Origin: Christensenellales bacterium
Lineage (GTDB): Bacteria; Bacillota; Clostridia; Christensenellales; UBA1242
DNA length: 64,000 nt
Assembly (NCBI GenBank): GCA_051883495.1
Contig: JBJETV010000006.1
Span: forward strand, 2,160 to 66,159
Reading direction: 5' to 3'
Part shown: piece by piece, positions 1 to 14,914 of the stretch
Layout: each line of letters opens with the position of its first letter
Numbering within the stretch: position 1 is the first letter of the stretch
Made by a program: the position numbers and the translations under genes
Notes under the pieces: model-generated
Database searches by the model: none
What the model was told of the DNA's origin: nothing
What the model saw: only the letters and a program-made list of their open reading frames with translations

Positions 1-1075
1 CAGCGGGCCACGAGAGGGTTTTACAGAAGTGTTGAGGACCAATGTTGCCCTTATTCGTAAAAGATGTCCATCTCAAAATCTCAAAATTGAGGAGATGGTC
101 CTTGGGACAAAAACAAGGACAAGGATAAATATAATTTACTTTAAGGATATTGCGAAGGGTGAAATTGTAGAAGAAGTAAAAAAGAGATTGCAAAGGGTGG
201 AGATTGATGGCGTAATAGACAGTTATTATGTTGCAAAATTTTTGGAAGATAGACCAAACTCTATATTCAATCAGGTGGGCAACAGTGAAAAACCAGATAT
301 TGCCTGCGCCAAACTTTTGGAGGGGAGGATAGTTATTTTGGTTGACGGTTCTCCCATTGCTCTTACTGTGCCATATTTGTTTTTTGAGGACCTTCAGAGT
401 TGCAACGACTATTATTCCGATTCTCACCGAGCAACCATTTTGAGAATTATTAGAGTTATGGGAATTTTTATTTCCATTTTTTTGCCCGGAATGTATATTG
501 CCTTGCATTTGTATCACTATAAGGTCTTGCCCATAAAGTTTCTTGTTACTATTGTAAACACTACCCAAAACCTTCCACTGAATCCTTTTTTGGAGATATT
601 CTTTATCATAGTGCTGTTTGATATATTGTTTGAAGCAAGTGTGCGTATGCCCAAGTATCTTGGCATGGCTATATCTATCGTTGGGGCTCTTATCTTGGGT
701 GATACAGCGGTTAAGGCAGGGCTGGTCAGCCCACCGGGAGTTATGATAATTGCATTAAGCGCTATCACTGTGTATATTATCCCCAATCAGAGTTCGCAAA
801 TATCTATGCTTAGGATTGTATTTGCAATAATAGGTGGAACGTTGGGCTTTCATGGGGTTGTTTTGGGGTTGATATTTATAGTGTCTTATTTATGCAACTT
901 TGAATGTTTTGAAACGCCATACTTTGCCCCTTACACACCATTTATCCCACAGGACCAAAAAGACTTTATCCTCAAAGATTCGCTGGTGTCTATGAAGACA
1001 AGACCAAAGAGTATCCCTCACAAAAATAATATTCGCCTCGCTATAAAGTCAAAGGGCAAAAGGGGTGAAAAATGA
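1..1075 (+). CDS. GerA-family spore germination receptor, A subunit (5' end off the window)
   Basis: Frame is open back to nt 2 (SGPREGFTEVLRTNVALIRKR). It has a conserved GerAA/GerKA core (LLEGRIVILVDGSPIALTVPYLF) followed by C-terminal membrane helices. It is the first gene of an A-B-C arrangement with 4-nt overlaps. Confidence 0.9.
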   Translation, partial: SGPREGFTEVLRTNVALIRKRCPSQNLKIEEMVLGTKTRTRINIIYFKDIAKGEIVEEVKKRLQRVEIDGVIDSYYVAKFLEDRPNSIFNQVGNSEKPDIACAKLLEGRIVILVDGSPIALTVPYLFFEDLQSCNDYYSDSHRATILRIIRVMGIFISIFLPGMYIALHLYHYKVLPIKFLVTIVNTTQNLPLNPFLEIFFIIVLFDILFEASVRMPKYLGMAISIVGALILGDTAVKAGLVSPPGVMIIALSAITVYIIPNQSSQISMLRIVFAIIGGTLGFHGVVLGLIFIVSYLCNFECFETPYFAPYTPFIPQDQKDFILKDSLVSMKTRPKSIPHKNNIRLAIKSKGKRGEK

Positions 1076-2256
1076 AAAGACTTGTTACCACTCGTCAACT
1101 ATCGTTGATTCTTATCATAAGCCTTATTACTCTCAAAGGTTTGCTTCTCCCACCAATTATGGCAAAAGACTTGGGTAGGGATAGTTATATTTTTGCATTT
1201 GTCCTTTTGTTTCTCGATTTTTTAGTATTGTTAAGTTTTTTATTTGTTATGAACAAATACCCAGGGCAATCATTTTTTCAAATATTGCAACAACTCTTTG
1301 GGGTGGTGATTGCAAAGATTATTATGTTCTTTTTCTTTTGCTTTTTCTTTGTAAAATGTTGCATAATTTTTCAGGCAAATTTTGTCTATCTAAATGAAAA
1401 TTTATACACCACTTTCAACTGGCTAATATTTGCAGTGCCTATTCTTTTTACGGTGGTGGCTTGCGCTATGCGTGGGGTAACAGCATTTGCAAGACTGGTG
1501 GAGTTTTTCTTTCCAGTGATTATCGTTGGGGTGTTCACTTCTATGGGGGCGGGTGTTTTGTCTGCCGATTTTTCCAATCTACTACCTTTTATGGAGTTTG
1601 GGTTAAGCAAATTGCCCAAAGTTTTTTCGTATGCGCTGTGGTTTGGCGATTATCTCATTATGATTGTATTCTTTGGCAATGTAAAAACCACTAAAAAGTT
1701 TAACCTGCGTATAATCTTGTCTATTTCTGGAGCAATACTAGGTGTGGTTGCATTTATTGCCATATTTTATAGCATACACAACTACAGCGCCATTTGCCAC
1801 ACCAATGCAATATCAGATATGCTCCAAACTATGCCACTGTCTTCTGACGTGGGGAGTTTTGACTGGATACTAATTATCCTTTGGGATATTTCGTTATTTT
1901 TGTTCTTTACTATGAATATTTTGGGTGCATTTTATTCTTTTAGAATGGCATTTTTTGACCAATTCCACATCCCAGTGGCAATAGGGATAGTGGTGCTTGT
2001 TTATGTTGCAAACAGAATAGTAAACTTTGATATATACTTTACTATCGAAGTAGCCCAAAAGTATATTTGGCAAGTGTGTTTATTTGTCCAATATTTCTTG
2101 CCTGCAATAATATTTTTGTTTGCCTTGTTCAAAAAACACAAACAGAATAACAAGACAGCAGGTCAACCTGCCACAGTGCAAAATATGGTAGCAGAAAGAG
2201 AACGGATAAGCCTAACTCGTGATGGGGTTTTGGATAAAGGGGGACAAGCAGAATGA
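1072..2256 (+). CDS. Spore germination protein B subunit (GerAB-type, APC-like permease)
   Basis: 394 aa and highly hydrophobic, with about 10 predicted helices. ATGA overlap with the A subunit; its position in the operon fits a B subunit. Confidence 0.85.
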   Translation: MKRLVTTRQLSLILIISLITLKGLLLPPIMAKDLGRDSYIFAFVLLFLDFLVLLSFLFVMNKYPGQSFFQILQQLFGVVIAKIIMFFFFCFFFVKCCIIFQANFVYLNENLYTTFNWLIFAVPILFTVVACAMRGVTAFARLVEFFFPVIIVGVFTSMGAGVLSADFSNLLPFMEFGLSKLPKVFSYALWFGDYLIMIVFFGNVKTTKKFNLRIILSISGAILGVVAFIAIFYSIHNYSAICHTNAISDMLQTMPLSSDVGSFDWILIILWDISLFLFFTMNILGAFYSFRMAFFDQFHIPVAIGIVVLVYVANRIVNFDIYFTIEVAQKYIWQVCLFVQYFLPAIIFLFALFKKHKQNNKTAGQPATVQNMVAERERISLTRDGVLDKGGQAE

Positions 2257-3569
2257 AATATCTTTGGAAAAATAAAATTCTGATTGCTCTATTATTGCTA
2301 CTTGTAATACTTTTCCCCTCAACAATCAGCACTCCGCAACAGAGCAGAACAGAAAATATAGTTACCGCAGTGGGAATAGACAAAATTGGAGATGAATACG
2401 AAGTGTCTATACAATATGTTATCCCTTATGCCGACTCCGCCGAGGGCACATTTAAGATGTCATCTGCCAAGGGCAAAACAGTGGGCGAGGCGGTGGAAAC
2501 ACTTAGCGTTCAGACGGGGCGACTTTCGGGCTTTGCTCATTGTAGGGCATTATTGTTCAATCAAGAAGCCAGCGAAGATGATATGACATCAATATTAGAC
2601 TACTTTATCCGCATAAAACCAAACACCAACAACATAGTCCTTCTTTACACCAAGAAGTCTAGCAAAGATACTCTTTCTGCAGTGAAAAATTTTAATGGAG
2701 AATTTTACACTATACTCAATGCCAATGGTTTGTCAAACGACCAAAGGAGATATCAAGAGTTCAAAAATATAGGGGATTATTACAATGCCTTTTTTTCGCC
2801 ATCCAAGTGTATAGGAATTAGTGTGATTGACGTAATGGACAACTCCAGCCAGCAGGGCAGTCAGAGTTCTGGTGGAAGTAGCGGTTCAAGTGGTGGTTCA
2901 AGTGATGGTGGCGGGAGTAGCAGTGGCTCTGGGCAAAGTTCCAATGCCTCGTCCAGCAACACCTCGTCCAGCAACGATATGTCCTCAGGCAGTTCTGGTG
3001 GGGAGAGTGGTGGCGGAGAGAAAAAAGTCTTTAATGCAGGCGAAAAACTTATCCTAAAAGATGCCAAAAAGGTCGCACTGCTAGACAAAGAGCAATCGTC
3101 CAACCTTTCATTTTTCAATCCAAAAATAATGGATATGAGTTATTCACTGGAGCATTTTAGCGACGAATTGTGCAAAGATGTGTCCATAATTTTTGACATT
3201 CACGACAAAGGTTGCAAAGTTATCCCATCATTTGTAAATGGAGTTCCACATTACACCCTAGACCTCACCCTTAATATGCGAACAACCGAATTGTCAGGTG
3301 GCAATGTGGGAGAAGATATGTATTATGTCCTCAACAAAAAGTTTAGCGACACCCTAAAACAAACCCTAAAGGACAGCGTAACCAACAACCTTCGTCAAGC
3401 AGAACAACATTTTAAGCAATACAAATATGACGTGATAAAATGCTACGAAACATTTTATAAATTCAAAAACAAAGAGTTCAAACAATATCTTTCAACCTTG
3501 CCAGAGGGCAAATATTTTATGGAAGATATTTCGTTTGACTATAAAGTTACAATAATCCAGCAACTGTGA
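2253..3569 (+). CDS. Ger(x)C-family germination protein (C subunit), atypical
   Basis: N-terminal hydrophobic segment followed by the GerxC-like TAVGIDK motif. ATGA overlap with the B subunit. There is no lipobox Cys, and a Ser/Gly-rich insertion sits at nt 2841-3026. Confidence 0.8.
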   Translation: MKYLWKNKILIALLLLLVILFPSTISTPQQSRTENIVTAVGIDKIGDEYEVSIQYVIPYADSAEGTFKMSSAKGKTVGEAVETLSVQTGRLSGFAHCRALLFNQEASEDDMTSILDYFIRIKPNTNNIVLLYTKKSSKDTLSAVKNFNGEFYTILNANGLSNDQRRYQEFKNIGDYYNAFFSPSKCIGISVIDVMDNSSQQGSQSSGGSSGSSGGSSDGGGSSSGSGQSSNASSSNTSSSNDMSSGSSGGESGGGEKKVFNAGEKLILKDAKKVALLDKEQSSNLSFFNPKIMDMSYSLEHFSDELCKDVSIIFDIHDKGCKVIPSFVNGVPHYTLDLTLNMRTTELSGGNVGEDMYYVLNKKFSDTLKQTLKDSVTNNLRQAEQHFKQYKYDVIKCYETFYKFKNKEFKQYLSTLPEGKYFMEDISFDYKVTIIQQL

Positions 3570-4257: not shown

Positions 4258-5592
4258 ATGAAGAAAAGGTTGACACTGTTAATATTTACTGCGTGTGCGG
4301 TGTTTGTTGGTTCTGTGGGGCTAATATTTTGGGCACTCGCTGCAACTCAAGTAAATATAACTTCAGGACTATTAGTTACATACAACCCAACTCCGCAAGT
4401 AGTGTGCAATGCCAGTGCAACTTATCAAAGGACTAATGACGCCAGCGCAATTGCATTTAAGAACGGCAATCTAAGTTTTGTATATGGTGGCGCAACAACC
4501 GATGCAACAATGGAGGCAACAAGTACTGCATTGCAACTGGACGATAGCAATACATATGTGGTGTTTGAGTTTACATTTGTAAACCAAAACCTTATGGAAA
4601 ACTACGACCTAACTATAACTCTATCCGACAACGGCACAGTAACAAATATGACAAGAAAATACTACTTTGGCGACCTATCTTCTTCCAATATATCCGCAAA
4701 AAGAACTACTATCAAAAACTCTGGCATAGACAATTCTTCGCTCTCTTCCAAAAAACTAGTCCTAGGCTACCAAGAAACAGGCAGAATATATATGCTCCTC
4801 GAAATCACCCCCGGCACAGTAGCCAACTACCTAGCAGACAATACCAACAAGTTTGTCTTTAACATGACCACTGCAGAGCATGTAGAAGTTGAAACAGTAG
4901 CTTATCTTACAAGAAACTGGACAAGTAGGATAAATGATGACACATCTCTACATGATACAACAACCACTATAAGATTTACCCAAGACGAATCACAAATAGC
5001 AGGGCTTACCAATAGTGTATCTGTGGGAACAAATAGCGAAACTGACACTTCTGCATATGTAGCATCTGATACTATAAGTGATGTAACAGCCTACTGGGGT
5101 AGTGATAAATCTACAATTGTGCTATACTCTCCAGGTATAATATATGCTCCACAAGATTCTAGTTTCTTGTTTACTATAGGATTAGTATCTGGGGGTGGAT
5201 TTCCCGCTCTTACAACATTAGATTTAAGCAACTTTGATACAAGAAATGTAACAGATATGTCATATATGTTTGACACTTGCTACTCACTAACGAGCCTTGA
5301 CCTTGGAAACATCAACCTTGAGAGTTGTACAAACTTTAGTGGAATGTTTGAAGGTGTGGTAATTAAAAGTGGTTTTACTCCAGCTTGTAGTCTTAACACA
5401 ATTGTTTTGCCATACAATATTCAAGAAGGTTATACCATAAATCTGCCATACTTTTTATTATATTATGCTGCCTATTCAAAGGATGGAGTTGGTTCTTATC
5501 AAATAGTTGGAACAATGACAAATGGAACGACGATTGCGTGTTCTACCGAAAACGAAAAAGTCACATTGGAATTAGAAGGTGTTTATATGTGA
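4258..5592 (+). CDS. Signal-anchored surface protein with DUF285/BspA-like leucine-rich repeats
   Basis: SD AGGAGAGAG precedes the ATG. The N-terminal helix is LLIFTACAVFVGSVGLIFWAL. The C-terminal motif LDLSNFDTRNVTDMSYMFDTCYSLTSLDLGNINLESCTNFSGMFEG is typical of the DUF285/BspA LRR family. Confidence 0.7.
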   Translation: MKKRLTLLIFTACAVFVGSVGLIFWALAATQVNITSGLLVTYNPTPQVVCNASATYQRTNDASAIAFKNGNLSFVYGGATTDATMEATSTALQLDDSNTYVVFEFTFVNQNLMENYDLTITLSDNGTVTNMTRKYYFGDLSSSNISAKRTTIKNSGIDNSSLSSKKLVLGYQETGRIYMLLEITPGTVANYLADNTNKFVFNMTTAEHVEVETVAYLTRNWTSRINDDTSLHDTTTTIRFTQDESQIAGLTNSVSVGTNSETDTSAYVASDTISDVTAYWGSDKSTIVLYSPGIIYAPQDSSFLFTIGLVSGGGFPALTTLDLSNFDTRNVTDMSYMFDTCYSLTSLDLGNINLESCTNFSGMFEGVVIKSGFTPACSLNTIVLPYNIQEGYTINLPYFLLYYAAYSKDGVGSYQIVGTMTNGTTIACSTENEKVTLELEGVYM

Positions 5593-6773: not shown

Positions 6774-6887
6774 ATGTTTGAGATAGAAAATAGATTCTTT
6801 ATGTCATGCGACCACGACTGTGAACACTGCTGTGGATGTTCGTATGATGATGACGATGATGACGATGACGAAGAAAGTGAAGATTAA
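6774..6887 (+). CDS. Unannotated 37-codon Cys/His/Asp-rich sORF ([37 protein letters not shown])
   Basis: SD AGGAGGG at 6763-6769 overlaps the ssb stop; ATG at 6774; TAA at 6885-6887. It is below the 60-aa cut-off of the ORF track. Its Cys module is shared with the gene at 7312. Confidence 0.55.
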
Positions 6888-6916: not shown

Positions 6917-7201
6917 ATGACTGAACAACAAAACGTTCCTGCAAAAGAAGTTGCAGAATCAGTTGAGAAAATTGCAAAAAGGCCAAAGAGAGTAAACAAG
7001 AAAAAGGTTTGCATGTTCTGTGCCGACAGAAGCAAGGTTATCGACTACAAAGATGTCGCAACTCTTAAGAGATTTGTTACAGAAAAGGGCAAGATTGTCC
7101 CTCGCCGTCAAACAGGCACATGTGCTATGCACCAAAGAGAAATCACTGTGGCTGTTAAACGTGCAAGAAATGTAGCATTGCTCCCATTTAGAGGAGAATA
7201 A
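6917..7201 (+). CDS. rpsR: 30S ribosomal protein bS18
   Basis: [48 protein letters not shown] is a conserved S18 core. SD AAAGGAGA lies upstream. Confidence 0.95.
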
Positions 7202-7235
7202 TTGCATTTTGATTTGATATATTCAAATTTATTTC

Positions 7236-7275
7236 AAAACCTGAGGGATAAACCTTGGGTTTTGTTTTGTTTTTG
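7236..7275 (+). terminator. Rho-independent terminator after rpsR
   Basis: AACCTGAGG-gataaa-CCTTGGGTT (9 bp including 2 G-U pairs), followed by TTGTTTTGTTTTT. Confidence 0.6.
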
Positions 7276-7284
7276 TAAAAAGTT

Positions 7285-7293
7285 TGATATAAT
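7285..7293 (+). promoter_or_regulatory. Extended -10 element (TGATATAAT)
   Basis: TGn-TATAAT about 20 nt upstream of the ATG at 7312. The -35 region is weak. Confidence 0.4.
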
Positions 7294-7311
7294 AAGCATA
7301 GGGGAATGATT

Positions 7312-7935
7312 ATGAAAAAAGAAAATAGCAAAGAACAACAATATGGTGATATTATTTACAACCACGACCTAAAAAAGCACACTATTATGGTGGCTGGCTT
7401 TCCTGCAATGATTACAAGTTATGTTGCAGGTGGGAAAACATTGTTCAAAGGTTTTTTGCCTGGATTTGAATTTGCACAAGTGGAGGGAATAGCAGACGAA
7501 TCCGAATGTGTAGAGTATCTTCAAGATATGCTAGATGACGAAGTGGAAGAATTGGTTGTTTTTGGCAAATCTTTGCCTCCTGTGGCAGAAGATGATGTGC
7601 TTTTGCGTCAGTATCCAGGCTACAAGATAGCATATTTGGATATCAACGTGTATGCAACCAACAATGATGAAGATTATTACGATTGCACACACGATTGCTC
7701 TTGTTGCAGTGGACATTGCCACGAAGCAGAATGTGATGACGACTGTGATTGTGAAGACGATTGTGATTGTGATGATGACTGCGACTGCGAAGACGACTGC
7801 GATTGTGAAGATGATTGTTGTTGTGAAGACGACTGCGACTGTGATGATGACGATGACGATGATGACGACGATGATGACGACGATGATGATGACGATGATG
7901 ATGACGATGATGATGACGATGACGATGACGACTAA
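7312..7935 (+). CDS. Acidic Cys/Asp-repeat protein with C-terminal Asp30 tail (function unknown)
   Basis: Long ORF. GGGG at 7301-7304 is spaced correctly for the ATG at 7312; the alternative ATG at 7306 is only 1 nt from it. The unknown N-terminal domain is followed by YYDCTHDCSCCSGHCHEAEC, six DDCDC(E/D) units, and 30 Asp. Confidence 0.75.
   Translation: MKKENSKEQQYGDIIYNHDLKKHTIMVAGFPAMITSYVAGGKTLFKGFLPGFEFAQVEGIADESECVEYLQDMLDDEVEELVVFGKSLPPVAEDDVLLRQYPGYKIAYLDINVYATNNDEDYYDCTHDCSCCSGHCHEAECDDDCDCEDDCDCDDDCDCEDDCDCEDDCCCEDDCDCDDDDDDDDDDDDDDDDDDDDDDDDDDDDDD
7738..7932 (+). repeat. Coding minisatellite: 6 x 18-nt (DDCDCE) units followed by a 90-nt GAT/GAC tract
   Basis: The units start at 7738, 7756, 7774, 7792, 7810 and 7828. 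Nt 7843-7932 are 30 consecutive Asp codons, including three GATGATGATGAC 12-mers. Confidence 0.95.
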
Positions 7936-7950
7936 GATAAAAGGCTGAAT

Positions 7951-10188
7951 ATGAAGATAAGTGGCTCGATTGAAGACATAATATACAAAAATCCTGACAA
8001 CGGATACACTGTCCTTAACATAGATTATAAGGGCAGACTTTTGACATGCGTAGGCAAAACTGTGTCTGCCAATGTGGGCGAAGATGTGGAGTTGGACGGC
8101 GAATTTGTCCAAAATAGCAAGTTTGGAGAGCAGTTTGCCTTTGTAAAAATAGAAACAGTAGAGCCAAAATCAGTGGAAAGCATAAAAAAATACTTAGCAA
8201 GTGGGCTTATAAGGGGTATTGGCCCAGTAACAGCAGAGGCTATTGTTAGGAAGTTTGGCACAGACACATTAAGTGTGCTGGAATATGCTCCTACAAGGCT
8301 TAAGGAAGTGCGAGGAATAAGCGAAAAAAAAGCATTTGAAATAGCACAAAACTATGGGGATATAAAGAAAATGCAAAATGCTGTTATCTTTTTGCAACAA
8401 TATGACATTTCGACCAATTTATCTGTTAAGATATTTAATTTTTATAAAGATAAAACGATAGAAACTGTATCTCAAAACCCTTACGCTTTGGTTGAAGATA
8501 TTGCAGGAGTGGGCTTTTTGTCTGCGGATAGAATTGCCTTTAAGATGGGGATAGAGCCAACATCAGACTTTAGAATTAGGGCAGGAATTTTGCATCTTTT
8601 ATCCGAGTTTTCGGACAAAAATGGGCATACTTATATCCCAAAAGAGCAATTATTTTCGGCAGAAGTTGACCTTTTGGGGCTGGATATAGAAACACTTTCT
8701 CCTATTTTTGAAGACCAAATAGAAAGGTTGGAGATTGAAAGTGTTATAAGGGTTTTTGATTACAAGGACACGCCTTGTGTGTGTTTGAAAAAGTTTTATT
8801 ATATGGAAAGTAGTATTTCCGCCAAATTGATAATGCAAAGCATGTCAAAGGTGGAGCAAAATATTGATGTAGAAAGGGAAATTTCAGAATATGAACGCAT
8901 AAACAAAATTAAACTTCACGAAACACAAAAAGATGCAGTGAGAGAGGCTGTTTTGGGGCAAGTTACGGTGATAACAGGCGGGCCAGGAACAGGCAAAACA
9001 ACCATTGTAAAATGTATTTTGCAAGCGCTAAAAAAATGGACAAACAGGGTGCTTTTGCTTGCTCCAACAGGTAGAGCATCAAAAAGATTGTCGGAGGCGT
9101 GCAACCACAAGGCAAGCACTATTCATAGAGCACTTGAAATGACTTACAAAGAGGGCGAGCAAGCGGTGTTTAATTACAACGAAAAAAATAAACTTATTGT
9201 CGATTGCGTAATTGTAGACGAAATGAGTATGGTTGATGTGTCGTTGTTTTACAGTTTGTTAAAAGCCCTCCCAGCAACATGCAAAGTGATTTTGGTCGGA
9301 GATAAGGACCAACTGCCTAGTGTTGGGGCAGGCAATGTGTTGCATGATATAATAGGAAGCAAGACAATCCCTGTTGTAAAACTTTCGCAAATTTATAGGC
9401 AAGATGACCAAAGTTTGATTGTAACCAACGCCCACCTTATCAACGAAGGCAAAATGCCCGACCTTAGCAACAAGTCAAAAGACTTTTTTTATGAAAACAG
9501 ACAAGACCCACAAGAAATGTATGAAACAGTGGTACAACTGGCGACCAAAAGATTGCCAAAATTCCTTAACTGCAAGCCAGAAGATATTCAGGTGTTGTGT
9601 GCAATGAAATCTGGCATTTGTGGAGTGGAAAATCTAAACAAAAAGTTGCAAGAAGTGATAAATCCACATATGCTCCGCAAGACAGAGATTAACTTTGAAA
9701 CAAGGTGCCTTAGAGAGGGCGATAAGGTTATGCAAACAGTGAACAATTATGACCTAGAATGGAGCAAAGAGTATGGAAAGGATATGACCGAGATCGGCAA
9801 GGGAGTATTTAATGGCGACATAGGGAAGATAGAAAAGATAGACTACCAAACTGGCGAAACAACAGTTATCTTTGATGACGACAGAAAAGTGGTTTATTCC
9901 AAGGCAGATTTGTTTGAGTTGTATATTTGCTATGCCACAACTATTCACAAAAGTCAGGGCAGTGAGTTTGATGCAGTGATTGTGCCAGTAGTTGCTGGTT
10001 CCAATCAAATTATTACACGAAATTTGCTTTATACAGCGGTTACAAGGGCAAAGAAATTGGTTGTGCTGGTCGGACCAAAAAAGAATATTGCAAGAATGAT
10101 TTTTAACAATTACACCGCCAAAAGATATAGTATGCTGGAGGAATTGTTGAAACTTCAAAAATCAAAAGCGGACAGCCTCTACTCATAA
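7951..10188 (+). CDS. recD2: RecD2-type SF1 DNA helicase (RecD/TraA family)
   Basis: 745 aa. Walker A VITGGPGTGKTT, motifs CVIVDEMSMVD and LVGDKDQLPSVGAG, and C-terminal YATTIHKSQGSEF...LLYTAVTRAK. Confidence 0.9.
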   Translation: MKISGSIEDIIYKNPDNGYTVLNIDYKGRLLTCVGKTVSANVGEDVELDGEFVQNSKFGEQFAFVKIETVEPKSVESIKKYLASGLIRGIGPVTAEAIVRKFGTDTLSVLEYAPTRLKEVRGISEKKAFEIAQNYGDIKKMQNAVIFLQQYDISTNLSVKIFNFYKDKTIETVSQNPYALVEDIAGVGFLSADRIAFKMGIEPTSDFRIRAGILHLLSEFSDKNGHTYIPKEQLFSAEVDLLGLDIETLSPIFEDQIERLEIESVIRVFDYKDTPCVCLKKFYYMESSISAKLIMQSMSKVEQNIDVEREISEYERINKIKLHETQKDAVREAVLGQVTVITGGPGTGKTTIVKCILQALKKWTNRVLLLAPTGRASKRLSEACNHKASTIHRALEMTYKEGEQAVFNYNEKNKLIVDCVIVDEMSMVDVSLFYSLLKALPATCKVILVGDKDQLPSVGAGNVLHDIIGSKTIPVVKLSQIYRQDDQSLIVTNAHLINEGKMPDLSNKSKDFFYENRQDPQEMYETVVQLATKRLPKFLNCKPEDIQVLCAMKSGICGVENLNKKLQEVINPHMLRKTEINFETRCLREGDKVMQTVNNYDLEWSKEYGKDMTEIGKGVFNGDIGKIEKIDYQTGETTVIFDDDRKVVYSKADLFELYICYATTIHKSQGSEFDAVIVPVVAGSNQIITRNLLYTAVTRAKKLVVLVGPKKNIARMIFNNYTAKRYSMLEELLKLQKSKADSLYS

Positions 10189-13815: not shown

Positions 13816-14914
13816 ATGGTAGTTGACGAACAAAGAGAAATTTTTTCCAAACTCAAAGACAAGAGTGATTACTTAAAGGAGTGTCTTTGACAAGGAAAAC
13901 TTGTTAAAAATTTTAGAAGAAAAGAAAAAAGAACAAGAAAATCCTGACTTTTGGAATGACCTAGAAAAAAGCAAAAAGAATGGTAAGGAAATAAAGAATA
14001 TAGAAAGCAAACTTTCGGTTATATCTTCTTGTGAAAAATATGAGGAAGATATAGAATTTTTGCTGGAACTTTTGGAACTGGAAGATGACGAACAGTCCTT
14101 CAATGAACTCATTGCAAAGATAAATCAGTTTGACGAATTTCTGGAGGAAAATACAATTTCAACTTTGCTGAATGGGGAATATGACGATTGCAATGCTATA
14201 TTGTCCATTCATGCTGGTGCTGGTGGCACAGAAGCGCAGGATTGGGCGAGTATGCTTTATAGAATGTATGCTAGATTTTGTGAAAAAAATGGATATGATA
14301 TGAATGTTGTTGATATGCTAGACGGTGATGAGGCTGGTATAAAGAGTGTAACATTTGTAGTGTCAGGCGACAAGGCATATGGTTATCTTAAGGCAGAGAT
14401 GGGTGTTCATAGATTGGTTAGAATTTCGCCATTTGACGCAAACAAGCGCAGGCACACCAGTTTTGCCAGCCTAGAAGTTATGCCAGAGATTTCTGATGAC
14501 AACGAAGTGGAAATTTCACCTGACGACATCAGAATTGACACCTACAGGAGCAGTGGTGCAGGTGGGCAACACGTCAACAAAACAGACAGTGCGATAAGGA
14601 TAACTCATTTCCCAACAGGGATAGTTGTTACTTGCCAAAACGAACGTAGCCAAATACAAAATAGAGAAATGGCATTTAAGATATTAAAGAGCAAACTTAT
14701 TGCCCTAAAAGAAGAAGAACGAAGAAAGAATCTTAATGATATCAAAGGCGACATAAAGAAAATTGAATGGGGAAGCCAAATAAGGTCTTATGTTTTTTGC
14801 CCATACACCATGGTCAAAGACCACAGAACTGGTTATGAAACATCAAATGTAGAGGGTGTTATGGACGGAGATATAAAGCCGTTTATTTTGGACTATCTCA
14901 AAAAGAGCCTATAA
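13816..14914 (+). CDS. prfB: Peptide chain release factor 2, made by +1 programmed frameshift (13816-13887 joined to 13889-14914)
   Basis: Frame 0 reads MVVDEQREIFSKLKDKSDYLKECL and stops at TGA 13888-13890. The +1 frame continues DKENLLKILEE..., with SPF (RISPFD) and GGQ (SGAGGQHVNKT) motifs. Confidence 0.95.
13876..13891 (+). promoter_or_regulatory. RF2 autoregulatory +1 frameshift site (AAGGAG tgt CTT TGA C)
   Basis: An internal SD-like AAGGAG lies 3 nt before the slippery CTT-TGA-C. This is the same architecture as the classical E. coli prfB site. Confidence 0.9.

Follow-up and report, generated by a model that had tools for sequence, protein, structure and literature searches.

The DNA analyzed here is a stretch of 64,000 nucleotides from a Christensenellales bacterium (GenBank assembly GCA_051883495.1, contig JBJETV010000006.1, positions 2,160 to 66,159 of the forward strand); the whole stretch is referred to as the window, and positions are counted from its first letter. 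Immediately upstream of the helicase gene recD2 the window carries a gene, here called gene X, whose product joins a predicted HicB/UPF0150-like domain to a short Cys/His module and a long repetitive tail rich in Cys and Asp. Our analysis suggests that the object of interest is the whole family to which gene X belongs, a group of modular proteins that is restricted to one clade, is under strong selection and probably binds metal. Gene X is composed as follows.

7312-7935, + strand: gene X, encoding a 207-amino-acid (aa) protein (sequence, the ratio of non-synonymous to synonymous substitution rates (dN/dS) and homologues)
7366-7659, + strand: predicted HicB/UPF0150-like fold, aa ~19-116 (AlphaFold2, Foldseek and invariant alignment columns)
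7675-7734, + strand: Cys/His module YYD-C-T-H-D-C-S-C-C-S-G-H-C-HEAEC (near-invariant alignment columns)
7738-7845, + strand: six DDC(D/C)C(E/D) hexapeptide repeats, aa 143-178, in an 18-nt tandem array (translation, Tandem Repeats Finder)
7843-7932, + strand: 30 Asp codons, aa 178-207, a lineage-specific expansion (translation, Tandem Repeats Finder)

Reading and translating the sequence gave an open reading frame (ORF) of 207 aa from the ATG at 7312 to the TAA at 7933-7935. By direct count, the product contains 62 Asp, 20 Cys, 18 Glu and 5 His residues. It has a mass of 23.4 kDa and a net charge of about −70. The C-terminal half opens with YYDCTHDCSCCSGHCHEAEC at aa 122-141, and six hexapeptides follow at aa 143-178 (DDCDCE, DDCDCD, DDCDCE, DDCDCE, DDCCCE and DDCDCD). 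An uninterrupted run of 30 Asp, encoded by 18 GAT and 12 GAC codons, occupies aa 178-207. The 20 Cys and the six DDCDC(E/D) repeats described in the initial annotation, which had been made from the sequence without database searches, were borne out by translation and count. Its statement that 30 Asp come after the repeats needs a small correction: the 30-Asp run is real, but it begins with the final Asp of the sixth repeat, which leaves 29 Asp after that repeat. Tandem Repeats Finder reported an 18-nt array at 7732-7844 with 6.3 copies and GAT/GAC arrays at 7842-7931. The ORF listing places the start of the gene at the ATG at 7306. The start at 7312, which the initial annotation had used, is preferred because the ribosome-binding site AGGGGA at 7300-7305 and the N-termini of the homologues (MKEEKK...) agree on it. 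On the minus strand, a 193-aa ORF at 7531-8112 with an Ile/Val run was rejected as a gene, since it mirrors the GAT/GAC tract. A look-up of the exact 207-aa protein gave no other record.

To assess selection, dN/dS was computed on aa 1-141, i.e., on the folded domain and the module, with the tail left outside. The values were 0.076 against the very close relative L031 and 0.070 against L007, another species represented by an independent metagenome-assembled genome (MAG) with 85% identity; rpsR, taken for comparison, gave 0.046. By these ratios, gene X is a real gene under strong purifying selection.

The tail behaves differently between relatives. L007 carries DDCDC-type repeats in about six variant units followed by 20 Asp, and the L031 protein is 185 aa long with seven repeats and no poly-Asp at all. 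L031 differs from the window at 5 of the first 141 residues (dS 0.19). All length differences among the relatives are in frame. Even within single clusters of 90% identity the tails vary by in-frame gain or loss of units, for example with lengths of 52, 59 and 65 aa differing by DDCDC units, or with two or three copies of HECHCHEEGD, and the closest clusters (P0001-P0005, 84-86% identical) have short tails of about 35 aa. That the repeat tract might be an assembly artefact, a concern raised in the initial annotation, was checked and rejected, as independent assemblies share the architecture at differing in-frame lengths and the codons are a mixture of GAT and GAC.

The same comparison changes the weight given to poly-Asp, which the initial annotation had named among the main features of the protein. 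Among 95 family members the median longest Asp run is 3, and the 30 of the window is the maximum. Judged from the relatives, the 30-Asp run is a lineage-specific expansion, neither family-defining nor key to function. Since poly-Asp is missing in L031, reaches 20 in L007 and has a median of 3, a dedicated calcium-storage role is weakened, and poly-Asp as a conserved Ca-storage device was rejected, the nearest relative being without it.

The N-terminal domain had been called unknown in the initial annotation; structure prediction now gives it a recognizable fold. The full-length AlphaFold2 model has a predicted local distance difference test score (pLDDT) above 90 across aa ~20-120, and a model of the domain alone reached a mean pLDDT of 88.4 and a predicted template modeling score (pTM) of 0.77. 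Its elements are ordered as strands, a long helix, a short helix and a strand, and the family alignment reveals an invariant core of GFLPGF, LQDxLDD..E.L...LP and LDINV. In a Foldseek comparison with the PDB, the top 13 matches were all N-terminal domains of HicB (6G1C, 6G26, 6G1N, 4P78, 4P7D and 5YRZ), followed by the UPF0150 protein TTHA0281 (2DSY). The best match, 6G1C, had template modeling scores of 0.60 (TMq) and 0.72 (TMt), a root-mean-square deviation of 2.5 Å over 85 columns and a probability of 1.00, and the Foldseek E-values were only about 1e-2. In BFVD the matches were to phage proteins, among them one annotated as 'RNAse H fold, HicB family'. At the sequence level, the most distant family members gave sub-threshold Pfam matches in the right region (P0102 to PF15919, HicB_lk_antitox, with an E-value of 0.012; P0106 to PF21748, UPF0150, with an E-value of 0.17). 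None of the HicB/UPF0150 models PF15919, PF05534 and PF21748 matched the window protein or its N-terminal domain at E ≤ 1, and an hhalign comparison of the domain profile with E. coli HicB, whose sequence was entered by hand, showed no similarity. On the models, we assign the domain a HicB/UPF0150-like fold with good confidence and homology to HicB with moderate confidence.

The resemblance to HicB N-domains and UPF0150 proteins extends to a partial RNase H-like fold of a beta-sheet and a long helix, and to a similar signature, in which a loop contains PG and a helix ends in G..LP. The usual C-terminal half of HicB is a helix-turn-helix (HTH) or ribbon-helix-helix (RHH) domain, and HicB proteins without this domain are common (PMC11594946). 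The X protein, by contrast, ends in a Cys/Asp tail and is encoded by a chromosomal gene that is syntenic and non-mobile, and the window protein has no significant sequence match to any HicB model or structure.

Directly after the fold comes the Cys/His module, in which C125, H127, C129, C132 and C136 are each present in at least 90% of the members, the Cys being spaced as C-x3-C-x2-C-x3-C. The signature CxHxCxxC of this C-x-H-D-C-x2-C-x3-C module was found in 80 of the 95 members and also in two kinds of stand-alone copies described below. Beyond it, the tail shows no positional conservation in the family alignment. Tails from about 19 to 138 aa occur in metagenomes, and over the 95 members, with a range of 19-135 aa, the mean tail has 85 aa with 20% Cys (standard deviation 4%), 36% Asp plus Glu, 10% His and 6% Lys plus Arg. 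A tail contains on average 6.3 CxC, 1.5 CC and 1.6 CxxC motifs and about 3 aromatic residues per 85 aa; the folded domain has a mean of less than one Cys per member. The repeated units differ by lineage (DDCDC, CDCGC, HECHCHEEGD, His runs), often with a Lys-rich tip. In the window protein the tail amounts to 93 aa and 9.4 kDa with 19 Cys and 4 His, and AlphaFold2 scored aa 124-183 below 50 in pLDDT, as would be expected of a tail that is disordered in the apo-form. When compared with PDB sequences, the tail found only the yeast Cu-metallothionein CUP1, which was not significant (E = 1.7). One member, P0094, terminates directly after the fold. We further observed that about half of the tails end in a Lys-rich tip (KNKK), so that strongly basic and strongly acidic segments stand in one protein, and that three metagenomic members (P0096, P0097 and P0098) have long Lys/Ala/Pro-rich basic N-terminal extensions resembling histone H1, e.g., ...AAKTAAAKPAVKKPVPKAGIKQAGTKAAKAAPKGGK....

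The Cys module also occurs without the fold. A small ORF (sORF) lies between ssb and rpsR in the operon just upstream of gene X.

6774-6887, + strand: sORF, a 37-aa stand-alone paralogue of the Cys module within the rpsF-ssb-rpsR operon (ORF and AGGAGG ribosome-binding site)

Its ribosome-binding site, AGGAGG, is strong, and the peptide ends in Asp8 followed by EESED. The sORF is kept between ssb and rpsR in L007-L011, where it reads C[DN]HDCxxCxGC followed by poly-Asp of variable length. The identical peptide was called on three metagenome contigs other than that of the window, and L031 carries an identical sORF; five further clusters of this small family all belong to the same clade. Its dN/dS against L007 was 0.057, a value based on few sites. 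A second stand-alone copy was found in L012 (4735-4914, + strand), where a 59-aa ORF directly 3' of gene X reads MPNNYCDHDCVHCSKHCDEAEWDEDDCGCGNG...DNDDD; from its sequence and position this is clearly a tandem stand-alone paralogue of the start of the tail of X, distinct from the ssb-rpsR sORF. The initial annotation had suggested that the sORF is paralogous to gene X, and this holds for the Cys module: on the evidence of the shared motif, the sORF is a genuine stand-alone paralogue of that part of the protein. The existence of such stand-alone module genes indicates that the Cys/acidic unit has a function independent of the fold, and the Cys module with its acidic tail appears to be an evolutionary unit that also functions alone. 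The sORF was also considered as a precursor of a ribosomally synthesized and post-translationally modified peptide, and this was rejected, as it lies between ssb and rpsR of a ribosomal operon in every locus that has it and there is no modification enzyme among the genes identified in these loci (ribosomal, DNA-metabolism and secretion genes). The S18 protein encoded next to it (rpsR, 6917-7201 in the window) carries CxxC...CxxH (VCMFCAD...TGTCAMHQ), as do the S18 genes of all relatives examined (L001-L031). We take this CxxC...CxxH to be the putative zinc-binding 'C+' form of S18. This S18 gene follows directly on the Cys-rich sORF and closely precedes gene X.

The family is very narrow, since an exhaustive profile search with the N-terminal domain through 1.84 billion representatives returned 26 proteins at E ≤ 1e-3. 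With aa 1-141 as the query, a word-indexed search gave 91 homologous clusters, all unnamed or 'hypothetical' and none with a Pfam domain. In GTDB, sampled with one genome per species (185,579 species), 24 species carry the family. All 24 are represented by MAGs that bear the label uncultured Clostridia or Christensenella and come from the guts of humans, goats, sheep, chickens and mice, and no cultured organism among the species representatives has the gene. Viral contigs, when scanned, contained no relatives. The full protein, the N-terminal domain and the sORF gave nothing meaningful in Pfam, NCBIfam, PHROGs or PADLOC, in line with the earlier impression that gene X belongs to no described family. 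At E ≤ 1, the only Pfam/NCBIfam match of the window protein was a spurious one to Glucan_synthase, and PDB sequences searched with a profile contained no match at E ≤ 10. The literature searches did not find a HicB architecture with a Cys-rich or poly-Asp part described.

The elements flanking gene X in the window are the following.

7235-7274, + strand: intrinsic terminator of the rpsF-ssb-sORF-rpsR operon, with a 12-bp stem at 7235-7264 and a T tract (terminator scan)
7285-7293, + strand: extended −10 element TGATATAAT, hexamer at 7288-7293 (sequence read)
7300-7305, + strand: ribosome-binding site AGGGGA, 6 nt upstream of the ATG at 7312 (sequence read; homologues start at the equivalent Met)
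7951-10188, + strand: recD2, a YrrC-type helicase gene with its ATG 15 nt past the stop of gene X (Pfam OB_YrrC, HHH_RecD2, AAA_19/30, SH3_13 and UvrD_C_2)

The rpsR terminator and the element TGATATAAT upstream, as well as the 15 nt to recD2, were all present as first described. The terminator is kept in L031 and L007, and the position of the extended −10 element in L007-L011 and L031. In L017, L018, L020 and L029, a canonical TTGAYA-17-TATAAT was matched upstream of X. By such consensus matches alone, gene X is predicted to have its own housekeeping, sigma-A-type promoter in all clades examined. No terminator lies between gene X and recD2 in the window, and the two genes are probably co-transcribed in the lineage of the window. 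The co-transcription proposed in the initial annotation is hence plausible here; it is not conserved, as elsewhere one or two genes intervene, a convergent permease gene stands between the two, or there is an inversion. We regard recD2 as genomic context rather than as an established functional partner.

The gene order in the window is gerA operon (29-3569), a DUF285 protein gene, rpsF, ssb, sORF, rpsR, X, recD2, comF, secA, prfB and tsaD. The order S6-SSB-S18-X was seen in about 22 loci, and recD2 lies at most ~2 kb downstream of X wherever the contig reaches far enough. In many species (L002, L005, L016 and others) a guanylate-kinase-like P-loop gene (PF00625/AAA_18) and an NT5C deoxynucleotidase gene stand between X and recD2; the clade of the window is without these two genes, which were lost or never present. 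In L004, X is divergent from recD2 owing to an inversion, and in L026 and its relatives a convergent permease gene separates them. Two further ORFs without a Pfam match were noted in this region, one of 255 aa between rpsR and X in L001 (5048-5815, − strand) and one of 232 aa beside X in L004 (5216-5914, + strand). A gene for ArsP_2 (PF11449, 'putative 10TM heavy-metal exporter') adjoins X in L019, L022, L026, L027 and L028 and is ~2 kb off in L024. Its orientation was read in L026, where it lies at 4589-5461 on the − strand, convergent to X, and an MgtE gene is found two genes upstream. The ArsP_2 permease beside X has a His/Cys-rich loop, HHHENECKHKEEVHSGCCHHH.

Taken together, we consider the best explanation to be that gene X encodes a soluble cytoplasmic metal-binding protein for buffering, storage or metallochaperone function, a reading to which we give an even chance. 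Of the readings available for the tail, metal binding is the best, as predicted from its Cys, CxC and His composition, and a tail whose composition is conserved while its sequence and length are not would follow the pattern of metal-binding tails. Further points in favor are the predicted disorder of the tail, the module residues kept in at least 90% of the members, the frame retained across all indels, the low dN/dS of aa 1-141 and the stand-alone module genes. The ArsP_2 genes near X in six species, with MgtE close by in L026, and the non-significant resemblance to CUP1 point the same way as weak leads. The HicB-like domain would serve as a scaffold for oligomerization or partner binding and not as an antitoxin. 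HicB N-domains mediate tetramerization in YpHicB3 (PMC11594946), which fits a scaffold role for the fold of X. The four-Cys/one-His module (C-x-H-D-C-x2-C-x3-C) may form a defined site, e.g., a tetrathiolate Zn(II) site or similar, and the disordered repeat tail could take up a number of additional divalent transition-metal ions, bound by the paired thiolates of CxC motifs with help from carboxylates and, where the tail is rich in His as in most relatives, from imidazoles. The protein would buffer, store or hand over metal ions such as Zn, Ni, Co, Fe or Cd in the manner of the SlyD and HspA tails and of metallothioneins. The capacity of the tail might shift rapidly as repeat units of 18 nt and 3 nt are gained and lost in frame. 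The 30-Asp run would be one such expansion, adding charge and perhaps weak binding of hard cations while being dispensable for the function of the family, and the sORF in the ribosomal operon would be a free-standing copy of the module with a short poly-Asp.

Several known systems combine comparable parts. The His/Cys-rich extension of H. pylori HspA binds Ni and serves as a store (PMC3856676), the third domain of SlyD binds nickel (PMC11198818), and a thioredoxin-metallothionein chimera, TrxA of Runella aurantiaca (TrxMt), has been characterized (PMC13578184). For HspA and SlyD a storage or chaperone function is documented. Like SlyD, HspA (GroES) and HypB, the X protein consists of a folded domain and a disordered His/Cys/Asp/Glu tail that varies between species, and several relatives have SlyD-like tails, e.g., ...HEHNHHHHHDHHDHHCSCGCEDEDDDECCCGDHEGHECHCHEE.... 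It differs from them in that there is no homology, the tail of the window protein is nearly His-free, contains much more Cys and Asp and consists of exact repeats, and X shows no link to hydrogenase or urease maturation genes. With metallothioneins (SmtA/BmtA, CUP1 and the plant type-1 CxC proteins) the tail shares ~20% Cys, few aromatic residues and CxC motifs that often occur as CxC-x3-CxC, and with TrxMt it shares the fusion of a Cys-rich unit to a folded domain. The tail of X is extremely acidic, whereas metallothioneins typically have Lys/Ser/Gly spacers. Metallothioneins are typically smaller than 10 kDa; the X tail taken alone has 9.4 kDa and the sORF product 37 aa, and the full protein reaches 23.4 kDa because the tail is fused to a 14-kDa folded domain. 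X has no match to the model of SmtA/BmtA (Pfam Metallothio_Pro) and is metallothionein-like by composition only. To our knowledge, bacterial metallothionein-like proteins are rare and confined mainly to cyanobacteria, pseudomonads and mycobacteria, with none established in gut Clostridia. What is known, then, is the HicB-type fold and the principle of the metal-binding tail or metallothionein chimera; their combination with a fixed module, a hypervariable tail and a ribosomal-operon mini-gene appears to be new in the libraries and literature searched.

A number of observations weigh against metal binding. No family of metallothioneins or metallochaperones in Pfam, NCBIfam or PDB sequences is significantly similar to gene X. 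The tail of the window protein has only 4 His and is more acidic than any characterized metallothionein. In one subclade (L005, L030, P0082 and P0095) the four-Cys module is kept while the tail is a Cys-free Asp/Glu/Tyr sequence, and the tail of the distant member P0102 is purely acidic; the common property of the tails could therefore be negative charge and not thiolates. No Rfam family, and so no metal-responsive riboswitch, was found at the gathering score in the whole window, and no palindromic operator was spotted by eye in the promoter of gene X, for which no systematic search was made. Gene X is surrounded, in the window as in most species, by genes for ribosomal proteins and for DNA or nucleotide metabolism and not by metal genes; the 64-kb window contains no ArsP_2-type gene and there are no metal genes near X. 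The adjacency to ArsP_2 seen elsewhere is convergent and confined to related subclades, and could therefore go back to one ancestral arrangement.

Among the alternatives, the tail could be mostly a neutral product of slippage, with the fold and the four-Cys module as the functional part, for example as a Zn- or Fe-S-dependent regulator or adaptor. We consider this unlikely. It would account for the variation of tail length and repeat number inside 90%-identity clusters and between near-identical lineages, for the ~35-aa tails of P0001-P0005 and for P0094, which stops after the fold, and the selection was measured on aa 1-141 alone. Against neutrality, the frame is always kept, and a Cys/His/acidic composition recurs in each lineage despite differing units. 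Neutral slippage would not repeatedly regenerate CxC-rich units, and the stand-alone genes of module plus tail are conserved.

About as unlikely is that the protein acts in nucleic-acid metabolism as a polyanionic mimic or partner, the fold binding protein or RNA and the acidic tail mimicking DNA or the C-terminus of SSB. The tail would then modulate basic or DNA-binding proteins such as RecD2, ComF, SSB clients or ribosomal proteins, and the Cys would be secondary, e.g., as a redox or Zn switch. The 30 Asp/Glu of the HMGB1 tail, the C-terminal tip of SSB and T7 gp2.5 are precedents of acidic tails that regulate DNA-binding proteins or mimic nucleic acid, and HicB domains are protein-binding modules. 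X resembles these in its acidic C-terminal run of ~30 residues and in the location of the gene near ssb and recD2. It is always near ssb (usually after rpsF-ssb-rpsR) and at most ~2 kb upstream of recD2-comF; in the window only 15 nt separate it from recD2, and in many species it heads the run with the guanylate-kinase-like and NT5C nucleotidase genes. The net charge of about −70, the Cys-poor or Cys-free acidic tails, which would make negative charge the most universal property of the tail, the basic N-terminal extensions of P0096-P0098 and the Lys-rich tips in half of the members all fit this idea. However, the tails of HMGB1, SSB and gp2.5 are without Cys and His, the poly-Asp of X is a lineage variant and not a family trait, and charge mimicry leaves 20% Cys and 10% His (CxC, His runs) unexplained. 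The synteny all comes from one narrow clade and may hence be inherited, not selected, and the co-transcription with recD2 is broken by the convergent permease in L026 and relatives and by the inversion in L004.

That gene X encodes a spore structural protein had been offered as an alternative in the initial annotation. The protein would be a disulfide-linked Cys-rich component of the coat or exosporium with an acidic tail binding Ca2+, and we now regard this as very unlikely. Cys-rich proteins are common in coats and exosporia and poly-Asp can bind Ca2+. The host is a spore former with a gerA operon at 29-3569, which is also found upstream of rpsF in relatives, and like CotY/CotZ, CdeC and CsxA the X product is a Cys-rich protein in a spore-forming Clostridia lineage. 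Beyond the spore-forming host, however, there was no positive evidence. Judged solely by matching to consensus sequences, the promoter elements are of the sigma-A type and do not match the sporulation sigma consensus. Gene X is placed among housekeeping genes, and Pfam and NCBIfam gave no match to a coat or exosporium family. X has neither sequence nor fold similarity to the named coat proteins, its Cys are located in a disordered polyanionic tail of a protein with a charge of about −70 and not in a self-assembling fold, and poly-Asp is missing in a near-identical relative.

Finally, that X is the HicB antitoxin of a type II toxin-antitoxin or defence module is largely refuted and hardly credible: the top Foldseek matches are all HicB antitoxin N-domains, and solitary hicB genes and HicB without a DNA-binding domain are known from the literature, but no hicA-like ORF lies beside X in the window, where the rpsR terminator and recD2 leave no room for one, a crude regular-expression search of the small ORFs of the window found no HicA-like motif, no HicA Pfam domain occurs among the called neighbors in L001-L006, Pfam reports no HTH or RHH domain and no HicB match at E ≤ 1, PADLOC gave no match, and the synteny is stable, housekeeping and vertical across 24 species, with no copies in viral contigs. 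As HicA, a DNA-binding domain and a mobile context are all missing, X is not a toxin-antitoxin module.

If gene X is, as we prefer, a metal-binding protein, a more daring and rather improbable extension can be formulated. Gene X and the sORF would then constitute a two-part Clostridia system, in which a HicB-fold, repeat-built sponge of thiolates and carboxylates and a mini-metallothionein in the S6-SSB-S18 operon buffer Zn or another divalent metal or deliver it to ribosomal and DNA-metabolism proteins. Just as tentatively, the capacity of the sponge would be tuned within populations by in-frame repeat slippage and the mini-peptide co-expressed with the Zn-ribbon S18. If true, this would give gut Firmicutes their first metallothionein-type family and the HicB fold a new role outside antitoxins.

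The gene X family offers a candidate with clear modules, namely a fold, a fixed four-Cys/His site and a variable tail. As the metagenomes contain a natural 'deletion series' of tails as well as stand-alone modules, structure-function tests are straightforward. A chromosomal, vertically inherited HicB fold among housekeeping genes also cautions against annotating such folds as antitoxins. Changes in repeat number could mean that metal handling varies between strains of gut commensals, which would be relevant at high dietary Zn or Cu, e.g., in livestock. Should metal binding fail, the family remains a strongly selected polyanionic protein near ssb and recD2 that is still unexplained.

Two other features of the window were noted. 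Between the gerA operon and rpsF, a gene at 4258-5592 (+ strand) encodes a protein of 444 aa with a hydrophobic, signal-like N-terminus and DUF285 repeats (PF03382, E-value 7e-8), a probable surface protein; the relatives L002 and L005 are without a DUF285 gene at this position. The release factor 2 gene prfB has its PCRF and RF-1 domains in the ORF at 13901-14914. Its upstream part at 13817-13900 starts with the ATG at 13817 and contains AAGGAG TGT CTT TGA C, whose TGA is in frame; this is the classical site of programmed +1 frameshifting and a known feature.

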